From positions 2,441 to 66,440 of the forward strand of contig CAUHSG010000010.1 of assembly GCA_959608885.1 (NCBI GenBank): a DNA stretch of 64,000 bases. Reading direction: 5' to 3'. Position numbers and translations under genes: made by a program. This DNA is from an uncultured Coriobacteriia bacterium. GTDB lineage: Bacteria > Actinomycetota > Coriobacteriia > Coriobacteriales > QAMH01. Of the stretch, positions 37,834 through 59,406 are shown one piece after another. The stretch's first letter is position 1. Each line of letters begins with the position of its first letter. The notes beneath the pieces are model-generated. The model was not told where the DNA came from. It worked only from the letters and a program-made list of their open reading frames with translations, and ran no database searches.

Positions 37834-39351
37834 ATGTTCGAACAAGACCACATCTGGGTTGGACAGGGCGAAGTCCCCTGTAACCTGCTCCTCAACCAGG
37901 CAAACCGCCATGGAATCATCGCCGGAGCATCCGGCACCGGCAAGACCGTGACCCTCAAGGTGCTCGCCGAAGGCTTCTCGAAAGCCGGCGTCCCCGTCTT
38001 CATGGCCGACGTAAAGGGCGACGTCACCGGCATCGCACAACCGGGAGACGATACCGAGAACATCGCCAAGCGCGTCGAGAAGTTCGGCATCGAGAACTGG
38101 CAGCTCGAGGGTTGCCCCACGCGTCTATGGGATATGCTAGGCGACCGCGGCGCGGTCGTGCGCATCACCATCTCGGACATAGGCCCCACCATGCTCGCAC
38201 GCCTGTTGGGCCTGACCGACGTGCAGGAAGGCGTGCTGGACATCGTCTTCCGCGTTGCAGACGACCAGCAAATGCTGCTCATCGACCTCAAGGACCTGCG
38301 CGCCATGCTCAACTACGTCTCCGAGCACGCCAAGGAGTTCGAGACCACCTATGGCAAGGTCTCGTCACAGTCGGTCGGCGCGATCCTACGCTCCCTCATC
38401 TCCATCGAGGACCAAGGTGGCGACATCTTCTTCGGCGAGCCCGACCTCGACCTCAACGACTGGTTCGCAACCGACGAGAACGGCCAGGGGTATGTCAACG
38501 TGCTCAACGCGGCGCGCCTCATCAACAGCCCGCAAATCTACGCGATGTTCCTGCTGTGGATGCTCAGCGAGCTGTTCGAGACGCTGCCCGAGGTGGGTGA
38601 TGCCGACAAGCCCAAGTTCGTCTTCTTCTTCGACGAGGCTCACCTGCTGTTCAGCGGCATGCCGAAGGAGCTGCTCGACAAGATCGTGCAGGTCGTGAAG
38701 CTCATCCGCTCCAAAGGCGTGGGCGTGTACTTCATCACGCAGTCACCGTCTGATATCCCCGACGAGGTGCTCGCGCAACTCTCGAACCGCATCCAGCACG
38801 GACTGCGCGCATACACCCCAGCCGAGCAGAAAGCCGTGAAGGCCGCCGCGCAATCCTTCCGCGAGAACCCGGCGTTCAACGCGAAGGACAAGATTCTCGA
38901 GCTTGGCACGGGCGAAGCGCTCGTCTCGTTTCTGGATGAAGAAGGCAAGCCCTCCATCGTCGAGTACGCAAAGATATTGCCGCCGCAGTGCCGCATGGCT
39001 GCCGCCGACCCCGAAGTCATCGACCGGATGCTTGCCGCACAGGAAGCGCTCATGAGCAAGTACGGCGAGGCAATCGACCGTGAATCAGCTTATGAGCTCA
39101 TCGGCAAGCAGGCCGAAGCGCTCGATGAGGAAGCCAGGCAAGCAGCCGAGCAGGCGCAAGCCGACATAGAGGCTGCCGAGGCCGAGAAACGGAAGGCGAA
39201 GGAGGCCGAAAAGGCCGCCGCAGCCGAGGAGAAGCGCGCCCAGAAAGCACAGCAAGAGGCCGTCAAGCAGGTGGGAAGCGTGCTCGGGCAGATTGGTCGC
39301 GAGGCGTCACGGCAGATCATCCGCGGCATCTTCGGCGCGCTCAAGAAGTGA
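37834..39351 (+). CDS. HerA-like/DUF853 (YjgR-type) P-loop ATPase with Lys/Ala/Glu-rich C-terminal coiled coil
   Basis: Walker A GASGTGKT and Walker B-like FVFFFDEAHLLF. The tail is AEAEKRKAKEAEKAAAAEEKRAQKAQQE. Confidence 0.8.
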   Translation: MFEQDHIWVGQGEVPCNLLLNQANRHGIIAGASGTGKTVTLKVLAEGFSKAGVPVFMADVKGDVTGIAQPGDDTENIAKRVEKFGIENWQLEGCPTRLWDMLGDRGAVVRITISDIGPTMLARLLGLTDVQEGVLDIVFRVADDQQMLLIDLKDLRAMLNYVSEHAKEFETTYGKVSSQSVGAILRSLISIEDQGGDIFFGEPDLDLNDWFATDENGQGYVNVLNAARLINSPQIYAMFLLWMLSELFETLPEVGDADKPKFVFFFDEAHLLFSGMPKELLDKIVQVVKLIRSKGVGVYFITQSPSDIPDEVLAQLSNRIQHGLRAYTPAEQKAVKAAAQSFRENPAFNAKDKILELGTGEALVSFLDEEGKPSIVEYAKILPPQCRMAAADPEVIDRMLAAQEALMSKYGEAIDRESAYELIGKQAEALDEEARQAAEQAQADIEAAEAEKRKAKEAEKAAAAEEKRAQKAQQEAVKQVGSVLGQIGREASRQIIRGIFGALKK

Positions 39352-39353
39352 GC

Positions 39354-40256
39354 ATGCGCCAACATCGCAAGAATGAGACAAATGCCCTGGGCAAATGTCT
39401 CATTTTGCTGCTCGTCGCAGCGCTCGCGCTGTTGCCGGGATGCTCATCGGCGCTGTCATCGCTGCCAACGACGGGACTCCCCTCGGGCGTCGAGTACACC
39501 GATCTTGGCACCCCCAACTTTGGCGAGCTTGCCGGACAAACCGAATCCTTCGAGGAGTACAGCCCGCTTGACGCGCTGGGGCGCTGTGGTGCGGCGACCG
39601 CGTGCATCGGTCGTGACCTCATGCCCACCAAGGAGCGGGGGCAGATCAGCTCCATCAAGCCCACGGGCTGGCAGCGCGCCGAGTACGACTTCATCGACGG
39701 CGGCCTGCTCTACAATCGCTGCCACCTCATCGCCTACAGCCTCACCGCCGAAGACCTCAACGAGCGAAACCTCATCACTGGCACGCGGCAGATGAACCTC
39801 GCGATGACCGAGTTCGAGAAACTCGTGTGCGACTACGTGGAAGACACCGGCAATCACGTGCTATACCGGGTCACGCCCGTATTCGAGGGCGTCGAGCTCG
39901 TCGCGCGGGGCGTGCAGATGGAGGCACTTTCCATGGAGGATAACGGCGAGGCTATCTGCTTCAACGTCTTCATCCCCAACGAACAAGACGGCGTTGGCAT
40001 TGACTATCTAACAGGGTATAGCTGGCTAGCTGGAGAGAGTGGAGGCACGGGCTCGAAGAACGGCGAAGGCGCTGCCGGGAGAAGTGGCGACGAGACCACG
40101 TGCGTCTACGTGCTCAACACGAGCAGTAAGCGCTTCCACCTCCCCACCTGCGATTCCGTCCCCACCATCAGCGCGAAGAACAAAGCCGAAAGTGATAAGT
40201 CCCGTGACGAATTGATAGCCGAGAGCTACAAGCCCTGCGGCAGCTGCAAGCCGTAG
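39354..40256 (+). CDS. secreted lipoprotein DNA/RNA nuclease (EndA/DNA-entry-nuclease-like) with C-terminal Cys motif domain
   Basis: Lipobox LLPGC, nuclease core YNRCHLIAYSL..ITGTRQMN, and C-terminus RFHLPTCDS..YKPCGSCKP. The signal n-region is encoded by type-2 repeat 39373-39403. Confidence 0.8.
   Translation: MRQHRKNETNALGKCLILLLVAALALLPGCSSALSSLPTTGLPSGVEYTDLGTPNFGELAGQTESFEEYSPLDALGRCGAATACIGRDLMPTKERGQISSIKPTGWQRAEYDFIDGGLLYNRCHLIAYSLTAEDLNERNLITGTRQMNLAMTEFEKLVCDYVEDTGNHVLYRVTPVFEGVELVARGVQMEALSMEDNGEAICFNVFIPNEQDGVGIDYLTGYSWLAGESGGTGSKNGEGAAGRSGDETTCVYVLNTSSKRFHLPTCDSVPTISAKNKAESDKSRDELIAESYKPCGSCKP
39373..39403. repeat. type-2 hairpin repeat inside the nuclease signal-peptide coding region
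   Basis: ATGAGACAAATGCCCTGGGCAAATGTCTCAT, translated as NETNALGKCLI. Confidence 0.8.
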
Positions 40257-40498: not shown

Positions 40499-40774
40499 AT
40501 GGAGTTCGAATACGATCCAGCTAAGAGCACGACAAACCTCCTCAAGCATGGCATTGATTTCGAGGAGGCGCAGTCGCTATGGGAGGACCCAAACCTAGTT
40601 CGATTTCCCATTGATTGTGGCGGAGAAAAACGCTGGGGTGTTATATCGCACTACTCTGGGAGCCGATGGGTTGCGGTCTGCACAACACGGGGCAACAACA
40701 CGCGAATCATTTCAGTACGTCGGGCAACCAGAAAAGAGGCTGCATTTTATGACAAGAAAAACAATGACCGATGA
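40499..40774 (+). CDS. brnT: BrnT-family (DUF497) toxin
   Basis: MEFEYDPAKSTTNLLKHGIDFEEA..RIISVRRATRKE is the typical DUF497 pattern. Confidence 0.8.
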   Translation: MEFEYDPAKSTTNLLKHGIDFEEAQSLWEDPNLVRFPIDCGGEKRWGVISHYSGSRWVAVCTTRGNNTRIISVRRATRKEAAFYDKKNNDR

Positions 40775-41009
40775 GGAGTTTGACGAGTACTTCGACAATG
40801 GTGGCGACATTACTCCCTTTATCGTCGAGGATTCTGTCGAATTTCCCAATCGCGATGACAGGGCCCGCAAGGTAAACATCAGCATGCCGGAGTGGATGAT
40901 TGAAGAGCTTGACGCCACGGCACGTCACTTCGCGACCACACGACAAGGCGTCATTAACATGTGGATTGGCGAACGCCTGGAGAACGAGCGCCGCAAAACC
41001 ATGACCTAG
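40749..41009 (+). CDS. brnA: BrnA-type antitoxin (RHH/CopG-like C-terminus)
   Basis: Overlaps the brnT 3' end. KVNISMPEWMIEELDATARHFATTRQGVINMWIGERL is RHH-like. ATG 40764 is an alternative start. Confidence 0.65.
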   Translation: MTRKTMTDEEFDEYFDNGGDITPFIVEDSVEFPNRDDRARKVNISMPEWMIEELDATARHFATTRQGVINMWIGERLENERRKTMT

Positions 41010-41806: not shown

Positions 41807-44278
41807 TTACATCGCCTGGAAGGCGCCGTTGCTCACGCGGGATTCCGCCACCTGCTCATCGCGCTTCCTTCCCATGATGTGGTCCTCGAAGTCGTCCATG
41901 TCGCGGGCGCTGTGGCGACGGGCGTACAGAACGCCCAGGCCGTAGACGATGGTGACGAGCGCGCCGAAGATCATCAGCCAGTGCGTCCAGCAGTGGATCT
42001 CCTCGAAGGCGGCCAGCGCGTTGGCGTCATCGTCGATGGTGGTGATGTCGGCCAGCGGGTTCTCGGCATCGCCGATGGCCTCGACGGCCGCAACAGCAGC
42101 TGCGGCTGCCGCAGGAGCGACGGCGTCAGCGGGGGTCGCAACTGCGGGAGCAACTGCGGGACCGGCGGGAGTATCGGTCGTGGCGGTGCCATCACCCGGC
42201 GTAGTCGGGGTCACGGGGTTGGTGGGGTCGGTCGGATTCGTCGGGTCGGTCGGAACGACCGGCACGGTCGGATTGTCGGGTTGCACGGCCGTCCACAGAG
42301 CCGTGAAGGTGATGTTGCCGGCCTCGTCGACGGCAGGCTCGCTCCAACCGGCAAAGTCATAGCCCTCGCGGGTGGGGTTGGCCGGGTTGCCGCCGGTATA
42401 GCCATTCACCTTGTAAGCAGTGGTGGAGTCAATCACGGGATCCGTGCCGTCGTCGTAGCCCTTGAGCCAGGTCACGGTAATCATCTTGGGGACGGGGGTG
42501 TACTCGGCCCTGTAGGTGACATCACCGTCTTCAACAGACTTAGTCCAGCTGTTGAAGGCATAGGTGAAATTGTCATCTTCGGGTCGTGTCGGATCATTTT
42601 GAGTATCTGCTGCAGGAATATTCTCTTCGCCAACAGCAATGGTCGTATGGAGTTCATCGCCATTCCAATTAACCCATGTTACGGTGTACTTGGGAATTGC
42701 TGTATAGGTTGCCTTGTAGGTTATATCGCCGGCATCAGTCTTGCTGTCAACAACCCATCCGGCAAACTTGTAGGTGTTGTCGTCGTCCTCGGCCTTTGTC
42801 GGAACAGCGCCAGGGTATTCGGGCTCGCTAGCAGTCAGGCCATCGTCGCTCAGCTTGAAATCCGCCTTGGCGAGCACGGTGGCACCGTCTTCGTCTATCC
42901 AGCAAGCGGTGAGAAGCCTCCACGCGGCGGTGATGGTAACGCTGTCCTTATCGTAGACGGGCAGTCCCCATCCAAGGAACTCGTAGCCAGCGCGCGACGG
43001 GTTGGCGGGATTTGCCAAGGCCTTCGCGTTATCTTCGGTATCACTGGACGTACCGCCCTTCAGGACCTTGCCCTTTTGAAGCACCTGGGAAGTATAGCCA
43101 TCGAACCAGTAGACAGGGCAGCTGGGAAGCATGGGGATGGGCCTCTTTTGCACATAACCGCAATCAACGCAGCTACGCGACTCGAGACCTTCGGAATCGA
43201 TCGTGGGCTCGGTCACGACTTTCCACCCGGTGAAATCGTGTGCGGCATATTCAACACCGCCCTCCTCTTCGCCATTGCACCACTCGCACGCTTTCTTGTG
43301 CTGCGCATCGTCAGCAAAGATCCACTCGACCTTTTCAAAACTGTGTCCATGGGCCGGAGTCTCGGTCTTCGAAATGATCGTTTTGCAAACCGGGCAGCTC
43401 TTCGTGTAGGCACCGGGTTTCGTGCAGGTGGCAGTGGCAACATCCTCGTACACCCAGTGACCGTCGTTTTCCGCCCAGTCCTCATGCTCGCAGTAGACCG
43501 TCAGGATGCCAAACTCTTCATTAACAACTCGATAGTCGTTCTCGATGAAAGACGACTTATAGGCGACCGTGTATTCCATATTGGCTGACGTTCCAACCTC
43601 CGTTTGGGATGAAGTGGTCGTCACTGTTACAGTCCCGGTGTCATCAGAATCATGGTTCATGAGCAGGCCCTCAACGTGACCAGGCGCCGTGAGTGGAGTG
43701 CCATCGTATTTCTTCTTGGCAGAATCGGTCACAACAGTGAGAGGAGCGGGGGAGATGTTGTATTCGAGACTCGCGATTTCCTTGCCGTCGACAAAAACAT
43801 GGCAATTGTATTTTCCGGCGTGGAACCATAGCTTGTCGTGCCCGTCTTCGGAAGACCATGTGTATGTGTAGTCCTTCGATTCGAGTTGCTGGCCGTTCTT
43901 GGTGACGATAACTTCAGGTTCCTGCTGAAGAGCGTTATAGGTTGCGGAACTTGACGAAAGCCTCGCCGCGAATCCCGTAACAGGATCCTCTTGACCTTCG
44001 TTTTGCTTCTGCTGCTCGTCCTTCTCGTTCTCGAGTGCGAGCGTGGTGATTTCGGCCTTCTCTATGACCTTGGCGCTATCCTCCTGGCCGGAAGACTTCT
44101 CCTTCTTCTCCTTCTCCGCCTCCTGCATCAACTCGGAGTCGGTGCTCGAACCGAGCGCGGCGCTCGCAATGGGAATGATAGTGAGAGTCGACACGGCAAA
44201 CACGATGGCGATAAAGCCCGAGAGGCACTTGCCCCATACCGTATCCTTTGGCTCCCTGTACTTTCTCTGTTGCTTCAT
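41807..44278 (-). CDS. giant surface protein S1 (824 aa): shared signal region, MBG-like and Cys/His modules, Listeria-Bacteroides (Flg_new)-type repeats, Pro/Thr stalk, shared C-terminal TM tail
   Basis: I chose start ATG 44278 (MKQQRKYREPKDTVWGKCL..PIASA) by analogy with S2 and S3. Repeats include SRAGYEFLGWG, YKFAGWVV..YKATYTA and REGYDFAGWSE..FTALWTA. The tail is ENPLADITTIDDDANALAAFEEIHCWTHWLMIFGALVTIVYGLGVLYARRH..DMDDFE..NGAFQAM. Confidence 0.85.
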   Translation of the reverse strand: MKQQRKYREPKDTVWGKCLSGFIAIVFAVSTLTIIPIASAALGSSTDSELMQEAEKEKKEKSSGQEDSAKVIEKAEITTLALENEKDEQQKQNEGQEDPVTGFAARLSSSSATYNALQQEPEVIVTKNGQQLESKDYTYTWSSEDGHDKLWFHAGKYNCHVFVDGKEIASLEYNISPAPLTVVTDSAKKKYDGTPLTAPGHVEGLLMNHDSDDTGTVTVTTTSSQTEVGTSANMEYTVAYKSSFIENDYRVVNEEFGILTVYCEHEDWAENDGHWVYEDVATATCTKPGAYTKSCPVCKTIISKTETPAHGHSFEKVEWIFADDAQHKKACEWCNGEEEGGVEYAAHDFTGWKVVTEPTIDSEGLESRSCVDCGYVQKRPIPMLPSCPVYWFDGYTSQVLQKGKVLKGGTSSDTEDNAKALANPANPSRAGYEFLGWGLPVYDKDSVTITAAWRLLTACWIDEDGATVLAKADFKLSDDGLTASEPEYPGAVPTKAEDDDNTYKFAGWVVDSKTDAGDITYKATYTAIPKYTVTWVNWNGDELHTTIAVGEENIPAADTQNDPTRPEDDNFTYAFNSWTKSVEDGDVTYRAEYTPVPKMITVTWLKGYDDGTDPVIDSTTAYKVNGYTGGNPANPTREGYDFAGWSEPAVDEAGNITFTALWTAVQPDNPTVPVVPTDPTNPTDPTNPVTPTTPGDGTATTDTPAGPAVAPAVATPADAVAPAAAAAAVAAVEAIGDAENPLADITTIDDDANALAAFEEIHCWTHWLMIFGALVTIVYGLGVLYARRHSARDMDDFEDHIMGRKRDEQVAESRVSNGAFQAM

Positions 44279-44382
44279 GTGCTTCACCGGCCTTCCCTCG
44301 GTCCCCTGCTTCTCTCCTCGCGCCAACGGCATTGCGGAGCATGCGCCCACGCGTACGACGCGTATGTAAACGGGATGGCCGT

Positions 44383-44388
44383 AGTATA
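44383..44388 (-). promoter_or_regulatory. candidate -10 (TATACT) of the S1 promoter
   Basis: The minus strand reads GGAAATTGCCCCGTCAATATACT, 105 nt upstream of the S1 ATG. The same arrangement sits 106 nt upstream of S2. Confidence 0.45.
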
Positions 44389-44657
44389 TTGACGGGGCAA
44401 TTTCCGCGCTGAGCTGGGATTTCTCCGAAAGACGCCAATATGGCTCCAGGGTTATGACAGGGTAAATGACCCCTGCTCTGACCTGCGAATTTCGGTAACT
44501 GGCCAGATAATCAGTGATGGGCACATTCACTAAATGAACGTCATTTGACATTGTATTGATTGTGTATTGAGAGGAAAAAGGGCGTACTATTGACCGTGTT
44601 CCTCTCCCGGGCACCCGTGGAGACAGGGAAAGGCACCGGACAGCAAGGACGGCGCAC

Positions 44658-46155
44658 ATGCAGACGCAAAGCTCACCCATAGTAGCGTATCGCGACCACT
44701 GGACTTCCGAGTGCATTGCGCTCATCTGCGGAATCGCCAATGCGGGCGGCGGAACCCTTGTCATAGAGTCGAGTGAGAAAGCCTACACGACCGGTCGGCG
44801 CAAGCTGAGGCGTCCGTTCGAGCAGATCCCCAAGCTTGTCGAAAAGGAGCTGGGCCTGCAATGCACAACCGAACCCGTGCTCGACGGCACGGCGCTGTGC
44901 CTGGAAACGACCGTTCCGGCAGCGGCAAAACCCCTCGCCTATGACGGCACGTACTGGCTCTACGCCGGCAACGCGAACATTCGCTCGACCCGCAAGACAA
45001 TCGAAGGGGTCCTGTCAAACGCCCCTGGCGACACCGAATCATTCGATACGCCCTGGGAGATGCGACCCCAGGCCGGAGTCAAGCTCGAGGATCTGAACGC
45101 CCGGGTGTTCCTCACGGTCGCGGCGCTGAAGACCGAAACATCTGACTTGCCCATGGACCCACTGGGAGCCGTGTTCGAGCATCGCCTGGCCCACCTGAAC
45201 CTGGAAAACCCACAGACCCAGGCCATAACGAACGCCGGCGTTCTGCTCCTGCACAACCAGCCCGATGCGATCATACCCGGTGCCCTGGTGCAGTTGCGAC
45301 TCCTCGCGCAGGACGAGCGGGTCGTGTTGCACGACGAGGTGAGCGGCCCCCTGCTCCGTCAAATCAAGGAGACGTCGCGTCTGCTCTTCGAGCAGTACCT
45401 GCCCATGGCGATCGCCGCCTCCGGATCGATGAACGATCCCGCCGCGGGTCTGAACTTTCCATCCCGCGAAGCCGTGCGCGAGGCCCTGTTGGGGGCACTG
45501 GCGCACAAGGACTACGCATGCGGCCAGCCGGTAAGCGTCGACGTCTTTCCCAGCCGCATGATCATACGAAATCCCACGGAGGCAGGCGTGCCCAGCCTTG
45601 CAGCTGGCGAGGATTCCGAAGTCCCGGCCATTGTCGCAAATCCCGTTCTCACCAGGGCCATGCGTCTCGTCGGCATCATGGATGACCGGGACGTCGATTA
45701 CGAGCGAATCAGCCAGAAGAACCTCGAGGTCGGACTCGATGCTCCCCTTCTCGAACAGGATGACGGCGAGACGTCAATCACCTTTCCCTTGGATTCGGAG
45801 AAAAGGCGGCAAATGAGCACCCCCCCCCCCTGCGCATGATTTTGACTCCGAATCCCCGGCACCTGCTAGCCGCGTGACCAACGTTTCCAATATCGAGAAC
45901 CCCGAATCCAAACCCAGGTACACGCCCTTCTCGGCACGCTCCATCGCGGCTGCCAACGAGCTCGATCTCACCTCGACCGACGAGTACGTCTTGCGCGTGC
46001 TGCACACCAACGGCCGTGCGACGGCGGTGCGCATAGCAAACGTGCTGGGCGTGAGCGAGAGCACCGTGCGACGGGCGTTCAGGAAGCTGAAGAAGCACGG
46101 CCTCATCGACCGCATAGGGTCGGACAAGGCCGGCTACTGGCACGTGAACGTGTAG
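44658..46155 (+). pseudogene. regulator R1 (COG2865-type AlbA_2 / HATPase_c_4 / wHTH) split by a +1 frameshift in a C11 tract
   Basis: ORF 44658-45839 (393 aa) ends MSTPPPCA* and ORF 45874-46155 carries the wHTH. Removing one C from 45819-45829 fuses them into a 498-aa protein colinear with R2 (491 aa). Confidence 0.75.
45819..45829 (+). repeat. homopolymeric C11 tract in the R1 linker
   Basis: Counted directly: gcaCCCCCCCCCCCtgcgca. Confidence 0.95.
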
Positions 46156-46319
46156 GAGGCGAGGGTCAGCCCCCTTGCCGCCTGCTAGAGCAAGGGGTGC
46201 TGGGAGAACGCGGGCGCGATTACGTCGGATTCAAGCTCCTCGTGTTCCGTGAGTGTCTTATCGAGCGGCTATAGCAGGCGCTGGCGCGTAAGCATATAAG
46301 AGCGTGGTATACTACACAG

Positions 46320-46412
46320 CCAGCGGATGCCCGCGACTGTTGCGTCGGGCAACGCCGTTTTCAGAATTGACCGCTTCCGCGCCTACGGGCGCGGGCGGTC
46401 ATCCTTTTTCCG
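46320..46412 (+). ncRNA. candidate small RNA, copy A (own extended -10 promoter and intrinsic terminator)
   Basis: TGGTATACT at 46306-46314. Stem-loop GCCCGCGAC..GTCGGGC. Terminator GACCGCTTCCGCGCC-TACG-GGCGCGGGCGGTC followed by ATCCTTTTTCC. A near-identical unit lies at 52211-52300, with an indel that breaks any shared ORF. Confidence 0.5.
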
Positions 46413-46466
46413 AGCGCCGCTCGGAGTCTTGATCACCAGTCTGATTCTGTCCCCCTATAACGCGAG

Positions 46467-46492
46467 GGAGGCGGCCCGAAGGCCGCCTCCCG
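46467..46492. terminator. strong GC hairpin after S2 (shared with the S3 downstream region)
   Basis: GGGAGGCGGCC-CGAA-GGCCGCCTCCC. The same sequence occurs at 52951-52976. Confidence 0.6.
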
Positions 46493-46531
46493 GTGGAGCT
46501 ATGTCGCTTGCGCGTCGCTAATTAGCTTGCG

Positions 46532-49500
46532 CTACATCGCCTGGAAGGCGTTGCCGGCTGCGGGGTTCTTCTCCGCGGCGGCGTCGTACTTCCTGCCACC
46601 CATGATGTCGCCCTCGAAGTCGTCCATGTCACGGATACCATGGCGGCGGCGGTAGAGCACCGCGAGGCCGTAGACGATGGTGACCAGGGCGCCGAAGATC
46701 ATCAGCCAGTGGGTCCAGCAGTGGATCTCCTCGAAGGCGGCGAGGGCGTTCTCGTCGTCATCGATGGTCGCCAGAGGCACACCGTCGTCGAGGATGGTGG
46801 CGGCGGCAGCTGCGGCAGCCGCGGGAGCGGCGGCGGCAACCGGCGCCAGCGGGGCAGCGGCGGCAGGTGCAGGCGTGGCATCAGGCGTAGCCGTGGGGAG
46901 CGCGGTGAAGGCAATGACGAAGGCCGTGTCATCGGTGAGCTCCATGTTGGCGAGCGGCTCGTTGTTCCACATGCCGTTGCCGTAACCGTCGTCGGCGGTC
47001 GCGCCGGGGATCTGAGCCGCGGTCAGGACGGCCACGCCGTCCTCGGCCAGGTTGCCGGCGGCGTCGTACTTGTTGAGCACGTAGCGGGCAGGACCGTCGA
47101 TGGTGCCAGCGATGGCCGCATAGGTCACGACGAGCTGGTACTTGTCAGCAATGCCATCGGGGACGTTGTTGCCGGGGTCGGTCGGATCCGTTCCGATGAC
47201 ATCCAGCGCCCAGTTGGCGGTGAAGGTGTACTCGGTGTTGCCCTGGAGCTCGCGAGTCAGGTTGGAGGCAACTGCGTTGCCGTCCTCGGTCCATCCGTCG
47301 AAGACAAAGCCGGCAGTCGGGTTAGTGGCCACACCGTCGAAGATGTTAACGGTGCCAGAGGTCGCGTTGTTGGCGAAGGTGACAACCTTCTGCGCAAGGT
47401 TAACGGTGCCCTGAGCGTTGTTAGCCGAGACATAGTTGACGACGGCCTGGTACTTGTCGGGGATGCCGTCACCAGGGTTCTCGCCATTGCCATCGTTGTT
47501 GGGGTCGGTGATGACGTCAACAGCGTAGGTCAGGGTGATAACGTTATCGTCCGCATTGGCCCCAATGGTTAGCTGCTCCGTGTTAGCACGCTCGAAGATA
47601 TATCCCTCGATGGCAATAACCTCGTCGGAGGAGCTAATGACGCTCTCAAACTCCTGGGGAGCACCGGTCTTGGGATCGAGCAGGGTGTTTCCATCCTCGT
47701 CAACATAGTTAACGGTGTAGGGGAAAGAGTCCTTGACGTAGGTGACGGTGACCTCGGCGCCGTTGGCGACCTGGGTGCCCGCCGTCACGTCCGTGCCGTC
47801 TGCGAGCTTGACGGTGGAGAGCTTGTAGCCGGCGTACTTCTGGTCGGCCACGTCGGCGGCCTTGAGCTCGAGGGTCTGCGGGTCGTTGACCCACACGCCC
47901 TTGGCCTCGCCGGTGAAGGTCGCGCGGGGGGCGTCCTCGCCGTCGACCACGTGCTTGACGGTGTAGGCCAGGTCGTTTGCCTGGGAGTCGTCCTTGACGT
48001 AGGTGACGGTGACCTCGGCGCCGTTGGCGACCTGGGTGCCCGCCGTCACGTCCGTGCCGTCTGCGAGCTTGACGGTGGAGAGCTTGTAGCCGGCGTACTT
48101 CTGGTCGGCCACGTCGGCGGCCTTGAGCTCGAGGGTCTGCGGGTCGTTGACCCACACGCCCTTGGCCTCGCCGGTGAAGGTCGCGCGGGGGGCGTCCTCG
48201 CCGTCGACCACGTGCTTGACGGTGTAGGCCAGGTCGTTTGCCTGGGAGTCGTCCTTGACGTAGGTCAGCGTGATGGTGGTGCCGCTCTCGACCTTGGTGG
48301 TGCCCTCGGCGACCGAGATGGAGTCGAACTTGTAGCCGGGATAAGTATTCTGGTCGAGGCTACCTGTAACGATGGCAATCATCGCTGGGATATCGGTAGA
48401 AGTGGAAGTGTAGGTCTTGGTATCGGCGGTCTGCTCGACGCCGGCGACCACGTGCTTGACGGTGTAGCTGGTTTCTGTGGCAATGGGCTTCCACTGGGCG
48501 ACATAGATGACATCATCAGTCACAGTCTCTGCAACTGCCGGATTCCAGCCAGTAAACTCATATCCAGTTCGTTCTGGAGTGCCTTTAAAAGCAGGCGTGA
48601 ACTTACCAGCTTCCACGGTATACGATTGGTCCGCAAAGACTTCCTCTCCATCTACGCCATCGACGTACTGAATAGTGTAATCTTTCACTTTTTCAACAAT
48701 TGACACGACAAAGATATCGCAGATTCCAGAAGGAGCCATATGAAGCACATATGTTGTTGCTCCGATAGCTTCACTTGCGGTGATAGTGTTTTTAGCATTA
48801 GTATTATCTTCAATTTGGACATTCGAATTGGTTGAACGCCATACATGATCGTTCTTCGAGTCGTCTGTGCCCTCTAATCTGATCTTTCCTCCACTTTTTA
48901 CAGCAGTTTCATGAATTACGGCGTTGGGATACTCTTTCGTCAGCCGCTCTAGCGTCCAACCTGTGATATTGATATCGGTAGCATAGCTTCCTGTTCCAGA
49001 GTTATTTCCATTCCCGTTGCCGACGGCAGCAAACGTCGTGGCGCCACCAAGCTTCTCGATGAAGTTGCTGATAGCATTCTTCACCTTGTTGGCTTTTTCA
49101 CCCAGCTCGGTGGAGGGAGCGGGGGTGGAAGGCTCGGCAGCGTCAGTATTGGCGGAACCCGTGGCGGCCTCGGCGGTCACGACGATGGTGGCACCGTCCG
49201 CGACCCTATCGGCAGCGACAGTGTACTCGCCGGCGTTGGGGGTGAGCGTCGTCTCGCCCTTGGCATCAGCTAGCTTGACGGCAGCCGCGCCCAGCGTAAA
49301 GCCATCGGCGGCCTTTACCGTGAACTTCATATCCTTGCCAGCCGGAACGACGAGCTCGGTCGCGGCATCCTTGCCGTTGTAGGTGACCGTGGCGTTCTGT
49401 GCCTTCACCTTGAGCGTCACATCGGCCGGAGTGGCGTCATCGGCATCGTCTTCGTCCTCGACGCTGGCAATGCTGAGCAGCTCGACGGGCTCGAGCTTCT

Positions 49501-49723
49501 GCTCGTCGGCAGCGGGCTCGGCGGCCTTCTCGTCCTTGCCGGAGGTCTGGTCGGCCAGCTCCTCCTGCTGCTGAACCTGCGCCTCGTTGGGCTCACCGTT
49601 GATCGCGCTCGCGATCGGAATGAGGGTGAGAGTCGACATGGCGAACACCACCGCCATGAAACCCGACAGGAACTTACCCCAGAGGGTATCCTGTGGCTCC
49701 TTATACCTACGTTGTTGCTTCAT
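46532..49723 (-). CDS. giant surface protein S2 (1063 aa): shared signal region, Ig-like/MucBP-like repeats, Flg_new-type repeat, shared C-terminal TM tail
   Basis: MKQQRRYKEPQDTLWGKFLSGFMAVVFAMSTLTLIPIASA start, RTGYEFTGWNPAV..VIYVAQWKP, and YTVKHVV..VTVTYVKD modules. The tail is VPLATIDDDENALAAFEEIHCWTHWLMIFGALVTIVYGLAVLYRRRH..DMDDFE..GNAFQAM. Confidence 0.9.
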   Translation of the reverse strand: MKQQRRYKEPQDTLWGKFLSGFMAVVFAMSTLTLIPIASAINGEPNEAQVQQQEELADQTSGKDEKAAEPAADEQKLEPVELLSIASVEDEDDADDATPADVTLKVKAQNATVTYNGKDAATELVVPAGKDMKFTVKAADGFTLGAAAVKLADAKGETTLTPNAGEYTVAADRVADGATIVVTAEAATGSANTDAAEPSTPAPSTELGEKANKVKNAISNFIEKLGGATTFAAVGNGNGNNSGTGSYATDINITGWTLERLTKEYPNAVIHETAVKSGGKIRLEGTDDSKNDHVWRSTNSNVQIEDNTNAKNTITASEAIGATTYVLHMAPSGICDIFVVSIVEKVKDYTIQYVDGVDGEEVFADQSYTVEAGKFTPAFKGTPERTGYEFTGWNPAVAETVTDDVIYVAQWKPIATETSYTVKHVVAGVEQTADTKTYTSTSTDIPAMIAIVTGSLDQNTYPGYKFDSISVAEGTTKVESGTTITLTYVKDDSQANDLAYTVKHVVDGEDAPRATFTGEAKGVWVNDPQTLELKAADVADQKYAGYKLSTVKLADGTDVTAGTQVANGAEVTVTYVKDDSQANDLAYTVKHVVDGEDAPRATFTGEAKGVWVNDPQTLELKAADVADQKYAGYKLSTVKLADGTDVTAGTQVANGAEVTVTYVKDSFPYTVNYVDEDGNTLLDPKTGAPQEFESVISSSDEVIAIEGYIFERANTEQLTIGANADDNVITLTYAVDVITDPNNDGNGENPGDGIPDKYQAVVNYVSANNAQGTVNLAQKVVTFANNATSGTVNIFDGVATNPTAGFVFDGWTEDGNAVASNLTRELQGNTEYTFTANWALDVIGTDPTDPGNNVPDGIADKYQLVVTYAAIAGTIDGPARYVLNKYDAAGNLAEDGVAVLTAAQIPGATADDGYGNGMWNNEPLANMELTDDTAFVIAFTALPTATPDATPAPAAAAPLAPVAAAAPAAAAAAAATILDDGVPLATIDDDENALAAFEEIHCWTHWLMIFGALVTIVYGLAVLYRRRHGIRDMDDFEGDIMGGRKYDAAAEKNPAAGNAFQAM
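47730..48265. repeat. perfect 261-bp tandem duplication (about 2.05 copies) inside S2
   Basis: 47730-47990 and 47991-48251 are identical by direct comparison. Each encodes the 87-aa unit DSQANDLAYTVKHVVDGEDAPRATFTGEAKGVWVNDPQTLELKAADVADQKYAGYKLSTVKLADGTDVTAGTQVANGAEVTVTYVKD. Confidence 0.9.
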
Positions 49724-49828
49724 GTGACTCCACCAACCTTCCCTTTGCCCTACTCACAGCTACACATGTTGCGTCACCCGCGCGAACGGCTTACGCGCGC
49801 ATGACATGTATAAAAATGGAATGGCAGA

Positions 49829-49834
49829 AGTATA
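49829..49834 (-). promoter_or_regulatory. candidate -10 (TATACT) of the S2 promoter
   Basis: The minus strand reads GGAAATTCGCACATTTATATACT, 106 nt upstream of the S2 ATG. Confidence 0.45.
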
Positions 49835-50099
49835 TAAATGTGCGAATTTCCTTGCTGACCTTGGGTTTTAGATATCTTAGTCACTCTGGGAAGATAATGC
49901 GGAGATGCCGGTAAGCGAGTGCTTTGACCGGGGGCTTCGCGTTACCCCATCAAGGCCCCATTCATAACATGCTGCGGCAAATGCTAGGTATATGCTAGGG
50001 CATTAGGTGGGTATCGAGCGGATAAGGGGCGGTATCCTGCAAACGCTCTCGCATCACCCGCGAGGATAATACGATTCCGAGGACGAAGGCGCTAAGCCC

Positions 50100-52341: not shown

Positions 52342-52572
52342 TTACGTAAACGCGAGATGCTTCTCTTGATCGCGGCATTCCGCAAGGTACATGTTGATAA
52401 TGTTTTGATAGGGCACGCCAGTACGAAGCGCCTCGGCCTTGAAATAGTCGATCGTCTCGCTGTCGATGTTAATCGTCACACGGCGACGCGTCTTGCCGAC
52501 ATAGGGGTTCGGAAGGCTGTCCGAAAAATCCACCTCGGCAGGCATGTCCATGATTTCCGCAACGTCACTCAT
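52342..52572 (-). CDS. brnA: BrnA-type antitoxin (second copy)
   Basis: SLPNPYVGKTRRRVTINIDSETIDYFKAEALRTGVPYQNIINMYL is the typical BrnA/CopG-like pattern. It overlaps the brnT-2 3' end by 8 nt. Confidence 0.75.
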   Translation of the reverse strand: MSDVAEIMDMPAEVDFSDSLPNPYVGKTRRRVTINIDSETIDYFKAEALRTGVPYQNIINMYLAECRDQEKHLAFT

Positions 52573-52864
52573 TCCGATACCTCCAATACTGTCGTTCTTC
52601 CGTCTTCGTCGACTTCCTAGCCGAAATTATCCTAATCTTTGAACCGTCAGCCCTTTCGCAATGGCATACCGTAAGCACCCGTGCCTTGAGATCCATTCTC
52701 ATGAGAAAGAACCTCTCCTCTTGATCCGAGTGCTTTTTGTCTGGAACGATGCGCGCATAAGGGTCTGAGAACGCATCCGCTGCCGATTCGAAGCTCACGC
52801 CATGCTTGTCGAGATTGATGACGGCCTTCTGGTCATCCCACTCGAAATCTATGCAGTCTTCCAT
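52565..52864 (-). CDS. brnT: BrnT-family (DUF497) toxin (second copy)
   Basis: MEDCIDFEWDDQKAVINLDKHGVSFESAADAF..IRIISARKSTKTE. The minus strand has TATAAT 4 nt before this ATG, so the mRNA may be leaderless. ATG 52870 is an alternative start. Confidence 0.75.
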   Translation of the reverse strand: MEDCIDFEWDDQKAVINLDKHGVSFESAADAFSDPYARIVPDKKHSDQEERFFLMRMDLKARVLTVCHCERADGSKIRIISARKSTKTEERQYWRYRNE

Positions 52865-52950
52865 ACTCATTATATGCATATGATACATATATAATGCATA
52901 TACATCAAGGAGCAACGCATCATCGAGTGGGATTTGTCCCCATGACGCGA

Positions 52951-53015: not shown

Positions 53016-56000
53016 CTACATCGCCTGGAAGGCTCCGTTTGCGGCAGAATCGGATGCCTGGCGGGTACTGTAGCGCCTGCTGCCATCCATGATGTCGCCC
53101 TCGAAATCGTCCATATCGCGCACATCGTGACGGCGTCGGTACAGCACGCCGAGGCCGTAGACGATGGTAACGAGTGCGCCGAAGATCATCAGCCAGTGCG
53201 TCCAGCAGTGGATCTCCTCGAAGGCGGCCAGCGCGTTGGCGTCATCGTCGATGGTGGTGATGTCGGCCAGCGGGTTCTCGGCATCGCCGATGGCCTCGAC
53301 GGCCGCAACAGCAGCTGCGGCTGCCGCAGGAGCGACGGCGTCAGCGGGTGTCGTAACAGCGGGCGTGGGGCCAGGTATCGGTGTCGGTGTCGGGGTCGGG
53401 GTCGGAGTCGGCGGAATCACCGGAGCGGGAACGTAGGTAACCACGATGGTGTGTCCCCTGGTCACGGCATTGAAGGTGAAGGTGCCGTCAGCCGACAGCG
53501 CCACGGGATTGCCATCAACCGTCACGCTCTCGAGGACGTAGCCGTCATTGGGGGTGAAGGTGTAGGTGGCGTCACCACCATAGTTCACCGTAGTGCCCGC
53601 AGTGGCTGCGTCGCTCGTGCCGTTGACGACCTGCACGTCGATGTCGAAGGTGACCGGCGTCCACTGTGCGACGTAGGTAACGTCACCAGTCACGGTATCA
53701 GTGACCTCGGGGGTCCAACCGGCAAAGATATAGCCGGCGCGAGCCGGGTCATCGATGGTCGGCGTGGTGTCGCCGTGCCTGATACCCTCGAACTGCGTCT
53801 GGACATCCTCGCCGACCGTACCGCCATTGAGGTCGTAGCTCACCGTGTAGGTATTGCGATCGTAGTAGACACTCAGGACCGTGCTGCCATTACCGGCAAC
53901 GGTAGCCGAGAGGAGCGTGCCCTCGACGGCGGGATTGTGGGTGAATCCCTCGTACTGCTTAACGCTGGCATTCACGGTGCTATCAGTCGCCCCGGTCAGG
54001 TTCTCGGTCTCGGCGAGCACATACGTGCCATCAAGCTGCTGCTGGTAGTGATGAACCGTATATGCGGTGTCGCCGTTTGCATTCCACGTAGCTGTGTACT
54101 CGCGGTTACCCGTGCTGCCCTTGGCGATGGTAACGGGGTTGGTGGCACCCGTCAGCCCCGTGCCCGTCCAGCCGGCGAAGGTGTAGCCCTCGCGGGCCGG
54201 GTTGGTGAGCGTAATGTCATCGCTCTCCACGGTATAGATGACGGGGTTAGTGCCGTCCACGGTTCCACCGTCGAGATCGTAGGTGATGGCGTACGTGATC
54301 AGCTTGTAGGTGTACGTGTACTCGGCATCGCTCGAAATCGTAGTATCCGAGGCAGGCGTCTCGTTCCAACTGCCAGCCTCGTATCCGGCTGCAGGCTTGT
54401 CACCCACAGCGGGGATGGTGTCGCCCAGAGTGGCGATGCCACCGGCAGCCATAGTGCCATTCGTGTACTTTTCAAGATACGTCACCACATCGGTGGTGGA
54501 TTCATTGTTCCAAGCACCGTTAACAACCTGATAAGTCACCTTGACCTGATACTTATCAGGAATGCCATCAAAGGTATCGGTACCATCCGGGTTGATGGTG
54601 CCCTTCGTATCCAGAGAGTAGATGATGTCGGCAACGATGTCGGCTGTGATGTTCTGCGCGGCAGCGAGCTTCGCAAGACCCTCGGCACTGGCAACCTCAT
54701 CGAGAACGTACTCGTTGTTTGCGCCCAGGCGCTGGGGAATCACGACGGCGTTAACATCGGAGCCCGTTGTACTCGCGGCACGGACCATGCGAGCAGCCGT
54801 CTGCCCCATGCTGTAATTGAAGTCAGCGCCTTCATCGACCGTAGTCTTGCTGGGATCTTGCAGAACTGCACCACCATCAGTCGTGAAATTGATGATGACG
54901 TTGTACTGCTTCTTGGCACCAGCCTCACCAGATGCTTCGCCATTGTCGGGGCCGGTGGTGTTGTTATCGTTGCTCTCGAGCGTGGCGTTGTTGACAAGCT
55001 TGCCGTTGGCAACGTCACCCTTGGTGAAAGTCTTGGTCACGTAGATGACGGCCTCGGTCTTACCATCGGCGATGGTGCCCACCAGCGGATCACCGCCGAC
55101 CCACGTTGCGTTCTCGTCAGTCACCTTGTATGCAGCACCCTCGGTACCAGTAACGGTAAGTTTGTAGAGCAAGGTCACGTTGGAGGCGTTGTCACCCACG
55201 AAAACAACGGTGTTGTCGTAATTTATGCCCTCGGGAACCGTCATGCCATCGGGAGCTTCAGTCAGACGCTGCTTCTGCAGGCTGGAGAGACTGGGCGTGA
55301 CGGGCGGGGTCACATTACGATCATATCGCAGGACGATGATATTACCGTCTTTCCCCAGGGTCAGCTCGGTGATCACATCGCCGATCGTGTAGCCATTCGG
55401 GCTGTTGTTGGCGGTGCCTTTATTGGCCTGGGTGTAGGCGTAGGTGTTCTCTACACCGTTCTTCGTGTACTTGAGGATCTTGTCGATATCATCAACCTTA
55501 ACAACGTCGCCCACATTCTTGCCAGAAATGTTCTCTTGCTTGGTGAAGCCATCCCGCTCTCCGTTAGTGTAGTACTCGTGAATCACTGTATAGGTGGTGG
55601 AGACAGGGTCAGGATTCTTCGCCGTCACGGTAGTGTTACCACTGGTCGTGTTGATTTCACATTCAATCTTGGCCTCGTTGTAGATTTTGCCGGCCGCGTT
55701 GGCCTTGACGGTGACTTTCACGTACTTGCTGCCGTTGGCGGGGACATAGACATTGTCCCAGGTCACGGTGCGGGTGTCCTCGTTGTATCTGCCACCGTCG
55801 CTGATTCCGTACATTTCATATTCGGCGTCCCACACAACGTCAAGCATCTCGTTCAGCACATCGGTGACCTTCACATAAATCCCATCGCTGTTGGGATTAG
55901 TCACCGTAATGGTGTAGGAGAACTCCTCGCCCACAACAGGGTACTCTTCACTGGGGCTCTTGCTGACAGTCAAATCCTTCAGGTTCTTTTTCCAAGTGGC

Positions 56001-57599
56001 GGTGTAGACGATTTCTCCATTTTCGTCTGCATCATCCGCGCTCACAACGGGGTTGACCGCAGGGCTCCAGCCTTGGAAGGTGTAGCCTTCGCGGCTTGGG
56101 GTACCCACAAAAGCGGGGGTATTGTCCCCCTCCTTGAGACCCTCGTAGCCTTGGTCGGGAAAGACGGTGGCGCCCGCAACACCATCGGTGTAGGTGACGG
56201 TATAGGTTTTGTTAGGCGTCCACTTTGCATAGAGAGTCTTGGAGACAGGATTGGCGGTGCTTCCATAGCCCTCAGACCAGTTCAGCGTGTAGCTGGTCTT
56301 CGCTGGGTTTGTGCATTCCTGATCCTCATACCAACCGGCAAAAGTGTATCCTTCGCGAGTGGGAACGTTTCCGGTAACAGAAAGGGCGGCCGACGTGTCA
56401 GCCTTATCCTCAACAGTCGGGAAAACAATGGAACCGCCGTTTGAGTTGTAATTCAACTCATAGCGAGCGTTAACGGTGATGTTGAGGGTTTCCTTGTCTT
56501 CAACCCAACCGCTGAAGGAAACACTCTGACCGAGGTATGCATCGCAATCGGGGCAAGTGTAACCGTAGGAGCTGAAGAAGTTGTAGTAGTACTCTTGCCA
56601 CGTGCTGAATTTGAGGGTCGTATTGCCGGGAGTTTTTCCGGTAAATCCGATATTCAGGGCTGGATAGCCACCATACCCGGCATCTGAGTAATCTTCTTCA
56701 ACATAACCTTTCAGACTCCAGGTCATATCCTTCACAGTGTTGGGATTGGAATCTTTAAAATAGGCAGATTTGTTGGGTTCTACAGCAATCCATTCAGGAG
56801 TCTCCTCGTGAACAATATGACCGTATGTGCATGAATGTGAATGGGTGTAAAGTCTTTGCGTGCTCTCGCTTTCTCCTACCCAAACAGTCAGATACTCGGC
56901 GGGATTCGTCCAGGACTCTTTAGGGCTGTTGGGGTGAATGTTGAGGTAGAGATAGCACTCTGGAGAACCGTTGGAATAAAACGTGCTCGCCGCATCATAT
57001 CCATCCAGGGGTTCGGTGTAATAAACCTCTGCATCCTCCACGTTCTCAACCGCGAGCACGGCCTCGAGCACCGCATATGCCTCCTCGAGCGCGGCGTTCA
57101 CATCTTCACGCTCGCCGTTCTCGACGCTCATGGCATCCCACATGTCCAGTACGGCGTTCACCTGCTCGCCGATCCCTTCGGCGTTTTCCGCCGTCACGGT
57201 ATCAACAGCAGGGAGCTTCTTGACTGCATCCAGGAAGGCTTGCACCTCAGCGGGAACAGCCTCCGTAGCGTCGTTTTCGCCGCTCGATTGAACACCGAGA
57301 ACGTTCTCCACGGTATCGAGGGTCTCGCCCTTCTTATTCTCGTTGATGAGATTCTCGATAGGCTTGGGCGTCTCTTCAGTGAGTGTCGCACCCGTCTTGC
57401 CTTCTGCCTCATTGGCCGCTTCCTTCGCGGCAGCGGCTGCAGCAGCATCAGCCTGCTCATTGGCGGGATTATCCAATGCTCCCGCAAGAGGAATGATGGT
57501 GAGAGTCGACATGGCAAACACGATGGCGATAAACGTCGTCAGACATTTACCCCATAGCGTGTCTTTCGGTTCTCTGTACTTCTTTCTTTGTTGGTCCAT
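53016..57599 (-). CDS. giant surface protein S3 (1527 aa): shared signal region, multiple Flg_new-type repeats, PT stalk, shared C-terminal TM tail
   Basis: I chose start ATG 57599 (MDQQRKKYREPKDTLWGKCLTTFIAIVFAMSTLTIIPLAGA). Repeats include REGYTFAGWYEDQ..TLYAKWTP, REGYTFQGWSP..YTATWKK, REGYTFAGWTG..YTATWNA and RAGYIFAGWTP..YVAQWTP. PPTPTPTPTPTPIPGPTP stalk. The tail is nearly identical to that of S1. Confidence 0.9.
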   Translation of the reverse strand: MDQQRKKYREPKDTLWGKCLTTFIAIVFAMSTLTIIPLAGALDNPANEQADAAAAAAAKEAANEAEGKTGATLTEETPKPIENLINENKKGETLDTVENVLGVQSSGENDATEAVPAEVQAFLDAVKKLPAVDTVTAENAEGIGEQVNAVLDMWDAMSVENGEREDVNAALEEAYAVLEAVLAVENVEDAEVYYTEPLDGYDAASTFYSNGSPECYLYLNIHPNSPKESWTNPAEYLTVWVGESESTQRLYTHSHSCTYGHIVHEETPEWIAVEPNKSAYFKDSNPNTVKDMTWSLKGYVEEDYSDAGYGGYPALNIGFTGKTPGNTTLKFSTWQEYYYNFFSSYGYTCPDCDAYLGQSVSFSGWVEDKETLNITVNARYELNYNSNGGSIVFPTVEDKADTSAALSVTGNVPTREGYTFAGWYEDQECTNPAKTSYTLNWSEGYGSTANPVSKTLYAKWTPNKTYTVTYTDGVAGATVFPDQGYEGLKEGDNTPAFVGTPSREGYTFQGWSPAVNPVVSADDADENGEIVYTATWKKNLKDLTVSKSPSEEYPVVGEEFSYTITVTNPNSDGIYVKVTDVLNEMLDVVWDAEYEMYGISDGGRYNEDTRTVTWDNVYVPANGSKYVKVTVKANAAGKIYNEAKIECEINTTSGNTTVTAKNPDPVSTTYTVIHEYYTNGERDGFTKQENISGKNVGDVVKVDDIDKILKYTKNGVENTYAYTQANKGTANNSPNGYTIGDVITELTLGKDGNIIVLRYDRNVTPPVTPSLSSLQKQRLTEAPDGMTVPEGINYDNTVVFVGDNASNVTLLYKLTVTGTEGAAYKVTDENATWVGGDPLVGTIADGKTEAVIYVTKTFTKGDVANGKLVNNATLESNDNNTTGPDNGEASGEAGAKKQYNVIINFTTDGGAVLQDPSKTTVDEGADFNYSMGQTAARMVRAASTTGSDVNAVVIPQRLGANNEYVLDEVASAEGLAKLAAAQNITADIVADIIYSLDTKGTINPDGTDTFDGIPDKYQVKVTYQVVNGAWNNESTTDVVTYLEKYTNGTMAAGGIATLGDTIPAVGDKPAAGYEAGSWNETPASDTTISSDAEYTYTYKLITYAITYDLDGGTVDGTNPVIYTVESDDITLTNPAREGYTFAGWTGTGLTGATNPVTIAKGSTGNREYTATWNANGDTAYTVHHYQQQLDGTYVLAETENLTGATDSTVNASVKQYEGFTHNPAVEGTLLSATVAGNGSTVLSVYYDRNTYTVSYDLNGGTVGEDVQTQFEGIRHGDTTPTIDDPARAGYIFAGWTPEVTDTVTGDVTYVAQWTPVTFDIDVQVVNGTSDAATAGTTVNYGGDATYTFTPNDGYVLESVTVDGNPVALSADGTFTFNAVTRGHTIVVTYVPAPVIPPTPTPTPTPTPIPGPTPAVTTPADAVAPAAAAAAVAAVEAIGDAENPLADITTIDDDANALAAFEEIHCWTHWLMIFGALVTIVYGLGVLYRRRHDVRDMDDFEGDIMDGSRRYSTRQASDSAANGAFQAM

Positions 57600-59330: not shown

Positions 59331-59406
<76 letters not shown>

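Follow-up and report, generated by a model that had tools for sequence, protein, structure and literature searches.

Poly-C tracts as candidate slipped-strand switches in two paralogous regulator genes of an uncultured Coriobacteriia bacterium

In this study, we analysed a stretch of 64,000 nucleotides (nt) from an uncultured Coriobacteriia bacterium (GenBank assembly GCA_959608885.1, contig CAUHSG010000010.1, positions 2,441 to 66,440; hereafter the window), in which three paralogous regulator genes, R1, R2 and R3, each lie divergent from a surface-protein gene, S1, S2 and S3. R1 and R2 carry a poly-C tract at the same position, just before the part that codes for a C-terminal winged helix-turn-helix (wHTH) DNA-binding domain. 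The tract has eleven C (C11) in R1, which is split by it, and ten (C10) in R2, which is intact. We consider it probable that both tracts are slipped-strand switches that toggle the fusion of the wHTH to the rest of the regulator, each regulator presumably acting on its adjacent surface gene. In this mechanism, replication slippage would add or remove a C in the run. C10, and also C7 and C13, would yield a protein that includes the wHTH (ON), and C9, C11 and C8 would lead to a stop in or soon after the linker and to a product without the DNA-binding domain (OFF). R1 would be OFF and R2 ON in the window, and with two independent switches a population could hold four regulator states. Each regulator would act on the divergent intergenic region that it has in common with the paralogous, strain-variable S1 or S2, and the tract would give heritable, reversible and stochastic control of the surface proteins made. 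We infer slippage as the source of the length changes, and likewise switching at some rate within a clone and regulation of S by R, be it as activator or as repressor. At the level of sequence, the features of a repeat contingency locus are all found here, namely an uninterrupted tract, toggling of the frame and lengths that differ on the same flanks.

Poly-C tracts and regulator reading frames

The R1 tract was read directly from the sequence in the context CAA ATG AGC A-C11-TGC GCA TGA. That of R2 stands in the context ATG AGC A-C10-TGC GCA AAA, where the frame stays open (MSTPPPAQNL). A preliminary description of the window, made from the letters alone, had reported C11 in R1 and C10 in R2, and both lengths are correct; its coordinates for the R1 tract, 45819-45829, begin one base early (45820-45830). 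What it had said about the reading frames was confirmed. R1 is cut to 393 amino acids (aa) before the wHTH, its 5' open reading frame (ORF) ending in MSTPPPCA*, and the wHTH is carried on in an ORF of 93 aa, the frame of which is the one expected with C10. Removal of one C in silico gives a 498-aa protein colinear with R2, C10 being the in-frame state, and R3 has no tract. The public proteins P0001 and P0103 have the length and the junction (MSTPPPAHDF) of the repaired R1, to which they are about 98% identical. When tracts of C6 to C15 were generated in silico, full length was obtained with C7, C10 and C13, and every other length was truncated.

The two tracts are the only homopolymers of at least 8 nt in the window. 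Dinucleotide-preserving shuffles gave an expectation of 0.06 C10 runs per window, and the three overlapping hits observed are the two tracts themselves. The tract holds the same position in R1 and R2 because of their paralogy, not by chance. Nucleotide identity between R1 and R2 peaks at the tract and its flanks, although the surrounding protein segment is otherwise unconserved: in 60-nt windows it reaches 0.72-0.85 over an island that includes the tract (Table 1), against 0.43-0.50 in the flanking windows.

In all three regulators, the C-terminal wHTH gives hits above cutoff to TrmB, HTH_24, MarR_2 and AsnC-type domains. The central HATPase_c_4 domain (PF13749) scores 54 bits in R3 and 26.4 bits, at a cutoff of 26, in the repaired R1; R2 alone gives no Pfam hit. 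For the N-terminal domain, no Pfam hit to AlbA_2 (PF04326) was obtained at an E-value of 0.01 or better. An invariant motif, CGIANAGGG, is taken by us to resemble the AlbA_2 signature. A profile of 18 homologues (alignment A1) matches one solved multi-domain protein only, DIP2311 of Corynebacterium diphtheriae (PDB 3lmm; E 8e-13), the match covering the HATPase_c_4 region. The same structure is the top Foldseek match (E 1e-15) of an AlphaFold (AF2) model of R2 with a mean predicted local distance difference test score (pLDDT) of 75.5, followed by MarR-type (MarR/ZitR-like) wHTH proteins; matches to Schlafen proteins are weak only (E about 0.01-0.03). In the model, residues 373-412 have a pLDDT below 50 and no secondary structure, and the tract (codons ACC CCC CCC CCT) codes for residues 380-383 (TPPP). 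The tract therefore lies in a predicted disordered interdomain linker of 40 residues, in line with the preliminary description, which had put it in a linker just before the wHTH. Judged by the model and the domain searches, R1 and R2 are paralogous HATPase_c_4/wHTH regulators with poly-C in a linker predicted to be disordered.

The split R1 could also be read as a functional two-protein gene that, in its OFF states, makes an N-terminal half and a separately translated wHTH, starting at GTG 45874 or at the ATG before the tract. The 93-aa ORF is indeed intact and conserved, short relatives without the central domain exist naturally, and a purine-rich stretch (GGAGAAAAGG) precedes the in-frame ATG directly upstream of the R1 tract. 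However, this stretch is not conserved in R2, and the ATG would give the wHTH only at C10 because it lies upstream of the frameshift. The other start, GTG 45874, from which the preliminary description had considered separate translation, has no purine-rich Shine-Dalgarno sequence before it. We regard this reading as scarcely credible. The ORF at GTG 45874 is listed by gene callers only because the gene is split, and independent translation of the wHTH from there was ruled out as a leading explanation for want of a ribosome-binding sequence.

Tract length and selection in public assemblies

Public data on the tracts consist of consensus assemblies, many of them at 2-11x coverage. In independent assemblies both paralogs are found with several tract lengths, and the length is not fixed across strains, as the proposal of a phase-variation switch in the preliminary description would have it. 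The 90%-identity protein cluster of R1 (527 members) contains products of 498 aa (MSTPPPAHDF, C10), 393 aa (MSTPPPCA*, C11) and 405/458 aa (MSTPPLRMIL, C9), in agreement with the lengths predicted in silico for C6 to C15. The R2 cluster (533 members) contains products of 491 (C10), 457 (C9), 482 (C11) and 481 aa (C8). The known lengths are C9, C10 and C11 for R1 and C8, C9, C10 and C11 for R2, all of them seen in DNA except C8 of R2, which comes from one protein. Among the R1 forms listed, about 34 contigs are ON, 61 have C9 and 10 have C11, counts that cover 15 of the 527 cluster members and are not frequencies. The exact 393-aa product of the window occurs on one contig. R1 has C9 in seven and C11 in three of the ten contigs reached via the 93-aa ORF, and C10 in all ten reached via the 498-aa form.

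C9 outnumbers C10 in the listed R1 contigs, and many strains have an out-of-frame R2 as well. A pattern scan of metagenomes that allowed any tract length found 13 loci, 12 of them scorable, with C9 at six of the nine scorable R2 sites and C10 at three, and with C9 twice and C10 once in R1. R2 is also at C9 in L011, the GTDB species representative nearest to the window (96% to R2). Sampling of R2 states via the neighbouring 139-aa gene returned only three contigs, all of them with the window's own rare haplotype.

Potentially, such differences could be homopolymer miscalls. The true length would then be C10 everywhere, or at least in the window, C9 and C11 would be errors, and R1 would be an ordinary intact gene. 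Many contigs do have low coverage, e.g., 2.3-4x. The long contigs L007 and L057, with names of the type contig_NNNN, may be long-read assemblies. Illumina artefacts occur at G/C tracts, and a warning on annotated tract lengths has been given (PMC9187656). The window's own C11, the exact product of which is found on a single contig, may be a miscall. Against miscalls, dozens of independent contigs, named in different styles, have out-of-frame calls, including some at 8-11x coverage (L006, L066/L071). Moreover, the 675-kb contig L078 has C9 in R1 and C11 in R2; with the -1 and +1 states together in one contig, a one-directional calling bias cannot account for the data. In L077 (protein P0009), C11 is followed about 20 nt downstream by a 7-nt deletion that brings the wHTH back in frame (MSTPPPCAKFGPLPGNF…). 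This cannot be a homopolymer miscall; the allele presupposes that C11 was truly present in an ancestor and that the full-length protein was selected for. Tract-deleted and interrupted alleles exist as well: the whole tract is deleted in frame in P0017, and P0113 and L013 have the interrupted tract C5TC4. Miscalls as an explanation appear quite unlikely to us. Further alleles include P0012, an in-frame R2 product one proline shorter, as C7 would give (a length read back from the protein), and the pair P0020 (ON) and P0055 (OFF), which share a diverged MNIPPP allele.

Different lengths also occur on identical or nearly identical flanks. Three contigs with C9 (L001, L003 and L010) do not differ from one with C11 (L004) at any site over 1490 bp of R1, and L006 (C11) and L007 (C9) differ at one site. 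A single downstream R1 haplotype was found with C9, C10 and C11; the changes are therefore recent and went in both directions. The public assemblies show the variation in tract length to be real, and these haplotypes, L078 and L077 together argue for DNA variation on a fast clock.

Two further alleles were observed at this locus. In the uncultured Coriobacteriia bacterium MGYG-HGUT-02686 (L013, 6001-7600), the R1 orthologue (94% nucleotide identity) combines C5TC4, in frame, with the nonsense mutation W100*, so that, as read from this sequence, the switch is locked and the gene is inactivated by another lesion. The protein P0003 (490 aa) is a chimera in which an N-terminal part of R2 type is joined, at the poly-C tract, to a linker and wHTH of R1 type, which points to recombination of the paralogs at this site or close to it.

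Besides the low coverage and the warning on G/C tracts given above, several observations weigh against a switch. The listed R1 forms are out of frame on about twice as many contigs as in frame, and inactivating lesions besides the tract exist, namely W100* in L013 and two deletions in R3, one of 1 nt in L078 and one of 69 nt in the window. Given these lesions and the excess of OFF forms, relaxed selection fits as well as a switch does. Finally, what supports an action of R on S is gene linkage. The 69 nt missing from R3 of the window are present in other strains and code for 23 aa (SACPPESAVREAVTNALLHKDYA) at the start of the HATPase_c_4 motif. R3 of L078 (13201-14512) is frameshifted by the loss of one G, its linker run being G5 where the protein of the orthologue P0037 implies G6, and all three regulators of L078 are disrupted. 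Codon choice was rejected as a sign of selection for the tract: CCC (49% of Pro) and ACC (51% of Thr) are the preferred codons anyway, T-P-P would be encoded by an unbroken run with a probability of about 12%, and the choice is uninformative.

These lesions and the OFF excess would be expected from gene decay, in which R1, and often R2 and R3, are dispensable and the poly-C tract, as the most mutable site, is hit first without any adaptive switching. The pattern of substitutions is at odds with this. Over the 79 wHTH codons downstream of the tract, haplotypes differ by 2-7 synonymous and 0 nonsynonymous changes, pairs of OFF lineages included, and in the upstream part synonymous differences are well above nonsynonymous ones, e.g., 38:5. 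These codon comparisons show purifying selection on the frame downstream of the tract. In addition, the occurrence of C9, C10 and C11 on the same haplotype and the restoration of the frame by a second-site deletion in L077 argue against decay, as does the fact that, within an island of local DNA conservation, both paralogs and almost every member of the two clusters have kept the tract. Decay is, in our view, unlikely. On balance, the downstream frame is in use over evolutionary time and the out-of-frame states do not last long, as a contingency locus predicts.

That the wHTH frame is under purifying selection even in OFF lineages would likewise be compatible with expression going on there. 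Some full-length protein might be made from C9 and C11 if RNA polymerase slips, or ribosomes shift frame, on the C-run, and the length in DNA would then set a dose instead of an ON or OFF state. Long homopolymers are known slippage sites (review, ref. 44 in PMC9187656). However, the in-frame C10 is common, and +1 (C11) and -1 (C9) both occur for both genes. Since no single frameshifted arrangement is conserved, this is not a programmed recoding gene. Efficient transcriptional slippage is, moreover, known mostly at A/T runs, and no stimulatory structure came to light, although no search aimed at one was made. Rescue at the RNA level is thus very improbable, and we favour the slipped-strand switch in DNA.

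Surface-protein genes and relatives of the regulators

The three tandem R-S modules adjoin gyrA and gyrB. S1, S2 and S3 contain Listeria-Bacteroides repeats and have common ends, an N-terminal signal-anchor (MKQQRKYREPKDTLWGK…) and a C-terminal membrane-anchor module (…HCWTHWLMIFGALVTIVYG…NGAFQAM), with variable middles. The S1-R1 and S2-R2 spacers can be aligned with each other and have shared blocks; an alignment of the three R-S spacers revealed no clear operator. In other Coriobacteriia genomes, including Adlercreutzia and many Eggerthellaceae metagenome-assembled genomes (MAGs), the C-terminal module of S adjoins R relatives in 23 of 43 loci (tblastn), and its N-terminal module adjoins the closest R relatives (L011, L013, L014 and L015). 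From this conserved pairing and from the three tandem modules, and from these only, we infer that R may control the neighbouring S gene.

A tract in the linker was also found in a short R relative, consisting of N-domain, linker and wHTH, of the mouse-gut Eggerthellaceae MAG MGBC165015 (L051, C9 at 6385-6393). It is truncated at 163 aa; with C8 or C11 the product would have 288 or 289 aa. Public proteins of this gene have 288 aa (GGPLPPPRDP, C8; 25 members), 226 aa (C7 frame; 14 members on 11 contigs) and 163 aa (C9 frame), and a 261-aa allele has the tract region deleted in frame. P0004 and P0005, which are relatives of R1 and R2 at the orthologue level, have no tract. Since the L051 form lacks the central domain and these relatives lack the tract, the two linker tracts are most simply explained as independent inventions, and the L051 tract would most simply be an independent second case of the same switch.

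Across the 43 loci, 11 of the 14 G/C runs of at least 8 nt, and eight of the nine of at least 9 nt, lie inside a regulator gene or within 400 nt of it. This zone makes up 17% of the DNA (binomial P ~1e-6, uncorrected for relatedness among the loci and for the share of coding and non-coding DNA). On the strength of this clustering and of the L051 case, it is tempting to speculate that a Coriobacteriia-specific regulator family with repeated, independent poly-C proline linkers, at which slippage detaches the DNA-binding domain, and with G/C tracts in promoter or ribosome-binding regions of other members provides lineage-wide combinatorial phase variation of large, strain-variable surface proteins. 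We put this forward as a possibility only, somewhat less probable than its opposite.

Non-coding G/C runs of 8-10 nt were observed beside short regulator relatives of Eggerthellaceae (L039 at 136 and 5622, L050 at 2136, L049 at 5698, L040 at 5686, L032 at 5968, L046 at 6910 and L048 at 2345). In three of them, at about 300 nt upstream of the regulator relative, the motif GGGCTAAAT(T/C)AGAAG-Cn recurs. In L032, G9 stands three nt before a GTG start, and in L046 and L048, G8/G9 stands seven nt before the ATG of the next gene.

The features of the R-S modules are listed in Table 1. From strain to strain, the S2 position is occupied by very dissimilar alleles, which are 409 to more than 1400 aa long and have Big_2, MBG_2 or Flg_new domains, and the region is therefore hypervariable. 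At 46156-46531, the window lacks two genes that other strains have between R1 and S2 (compared with L001-L010 and L054-L063), one of 200 aa that is Zeta_toxin/AAA_33-like and one of 54 or 82 aa. Just upstream of S1-R1, at 37834-40256 (+ strand), a HerA-like helicase gene (PF05872, E 1e-204) overlaps an Endonuclease_NS_2 gene by 4 nt, and the two possibly form a pair of the defence type. Scattered among the R-S modules are toxin-antitoxin genes, with a HicB-like antitoxin fragment at 40611-41009 and, at 52357-52915 between R2 and S3, a BrnT-type toxin (PF04365) next to a small ORF. A scan of 44200-46600 found no sigma-70-like site, and terminator-like hits were at background level; neither R or S promoters nor an internal promoter of the wHTH ORF could be placed with it. 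An Rfam scan of the window gave no match at the R or S loci; its only matches were a raiA RNA motif (155 bits) at 11068-11309 (- strand) and two tRNA genes at 59334-59406 and 59542-59615 (- strand), between R3 and gyrA.

Table 1. Features of the R-S modules in the window.
Feature	Position	Strand	Remarks
S1, surface-protein gene	41807..44279	-	Divergent from R1; true start ATG 44279 (MKQQRKYREPKDTVWGK...)
S1-R1 intergenic region	44280..44657		Divergent, 378 bp; presumed shared control region
R1 5' ORF, 393 aa	44658..45839	+	N-terminal domain and HATPase_c_4; stop 9 nt past tract; exact protein is public P0101
R1/R2-similar island, ~48 nt	45789..45836	+	TTGGATTCG..GGCAAATGAGCA-Cn-TGCGCA; in-frame ATG directly before tract; from R1-R2 nucleotide identity
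R1 poly-C tract, C11	45820..45830	+	Out of frame (+1 relative to C10); C9/C10/C11 in other assemblies
R1 3' ORF, 93 aa	45874..46155	+	GTG start, wHTH; exact protein on 109 contigs
S2, surface-protein gene	46532..49723	-	Paralogous; divergent from R2
S2-R2 intergenic region	49724..50099		Divergent, 376 bp
R2, intact, 491 aa	50100..51575	+	N-terminal domain, central domain, predicted disordered linker, wHTH (AF2 and Foldseek)
R2 poly-C tract, C10	51238..51247	+	In frame; elsewhere C9/C10/C11 in DNA, C8 and C7 from proteins P0142 and P0012
S3, surface-protein gene	53016..57599	-	Paralogous; divergent from R3
R3, third paralog, 459 aa	57911..59290	+	No tract; 69 nt (23 aa of HATPase_c_4 motif) shorter than in other strains

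Significance and comparison with known systems

Repeat-mediated phase variation is a textbook phenomenon in mucosal pathogens. To our knowledge, it is barely documented in gut commensals beyond Bacteroides invertons and Bifidobacterium pilus tracts. If the tracts are switches, an abundant uncultured Coriobacteriia lineage of the human gut would vary large surface proteins stochastically via regulators, with a bearing on colonisation, on immune and phage evasion and on strain persistence. Should the lineage-wide reading hold as well, gut commensals not known for simple-repeat phase variation would have a combinatorial system. In automatic annotation, such genes will appear as pseudogenes or as split ORFs, and more than 100 contigs are on record with the 93-aa ORF. 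The state of the tract can be read directly from metagenomes, and selection for ON or OFF in vivo is testable in existing cohorts. For a regulator family without a characterised member, a natural series of ON and OFF alleles beside a candidate target would offer a route to function.

In general, regulator genes switched by homopolymers are known from several bacteria. In Bordetella pertussis bvgS, a C6/C7 frameshift in a poly-C tract truncates the regulator, and with it a set of genes for surface and virulence factors is switched. As in R1 and R2, one C more or less in a regulator gene causes truncation; however, bvgS encodes a two-component sensor kinase of a Gram-negative pathogen and has a shorter tract, with neither a paralogous pair nor a local cognate surface gene. 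For a survey of homopolymeric tracts, see PMC1891110. In Campylobacter jejuni, indels in homopolymeric tracts of flgR and flgS lead to reversible loss of a surface organelle, and second-site, compensating mutations were seen (PMC8355987). Two regulator genes with homopolymeric tracts and compensating mutations are thus common to both cases, but flgR/flgS form a sigma-54 two-component system in which the tracts are mostly A/T or short and both genes serve a single pathway, not two regulator-target modules in parallel. Klebsiella pneumoniae rmpA likewise has a poly-G repeat in the ORF of a transcriptional regulator, which toggles a surface phenotype (bioRxiv 10.1101/2025.09.12.675794). It differs in being a LuxR-type capsule regulator of a Gram-negative pathogen, at a single locus.

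The closest experimentally proven parallel is, by analogy, found in Bifidobacterium breve UCC2003, where the sortase-dependent pilus loci bbr_0113 and bbr_1889 have G10/G11 tracts (PMC9187656). In a culture from a single colony, 10-60% are off the reference length, and the in-frame length was enriched in mice (PMC9187656). B. breve, too, is a high-GC actinobacterial gut commensal in which a G/C homopolymer of about 10 nt splits the reference gene into two ORFs that are fused by slippage; there, too, the switch acts on a surface structure, and similar tracts occur in related strains. However, the B. breve tract lies in the first structural pilus gene and is experimentally proven, whereas the tracts described here lie in two paralogous regulators, before the DNA-binding domain, and the evidence is comparative.

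DIP2311, the best match of the R proteins in sequence and fold, shares with them the HATPase_c_4-type central domain, the overall architecture and an actinobacterial host; it is uncharacterised and silent on function, and no homopolymer switch is known in it. A literature search returned no report on repeat-mediated phase variation in Collinsella or Coriobacteriia or on this locus, nor on the function of the AlbA_2/HATPase_c_4 regulator family. The mechanism is classical; what is new is the gene family, the taxon, the pairing of switches in paralogs and the apparent recurrence across the family.

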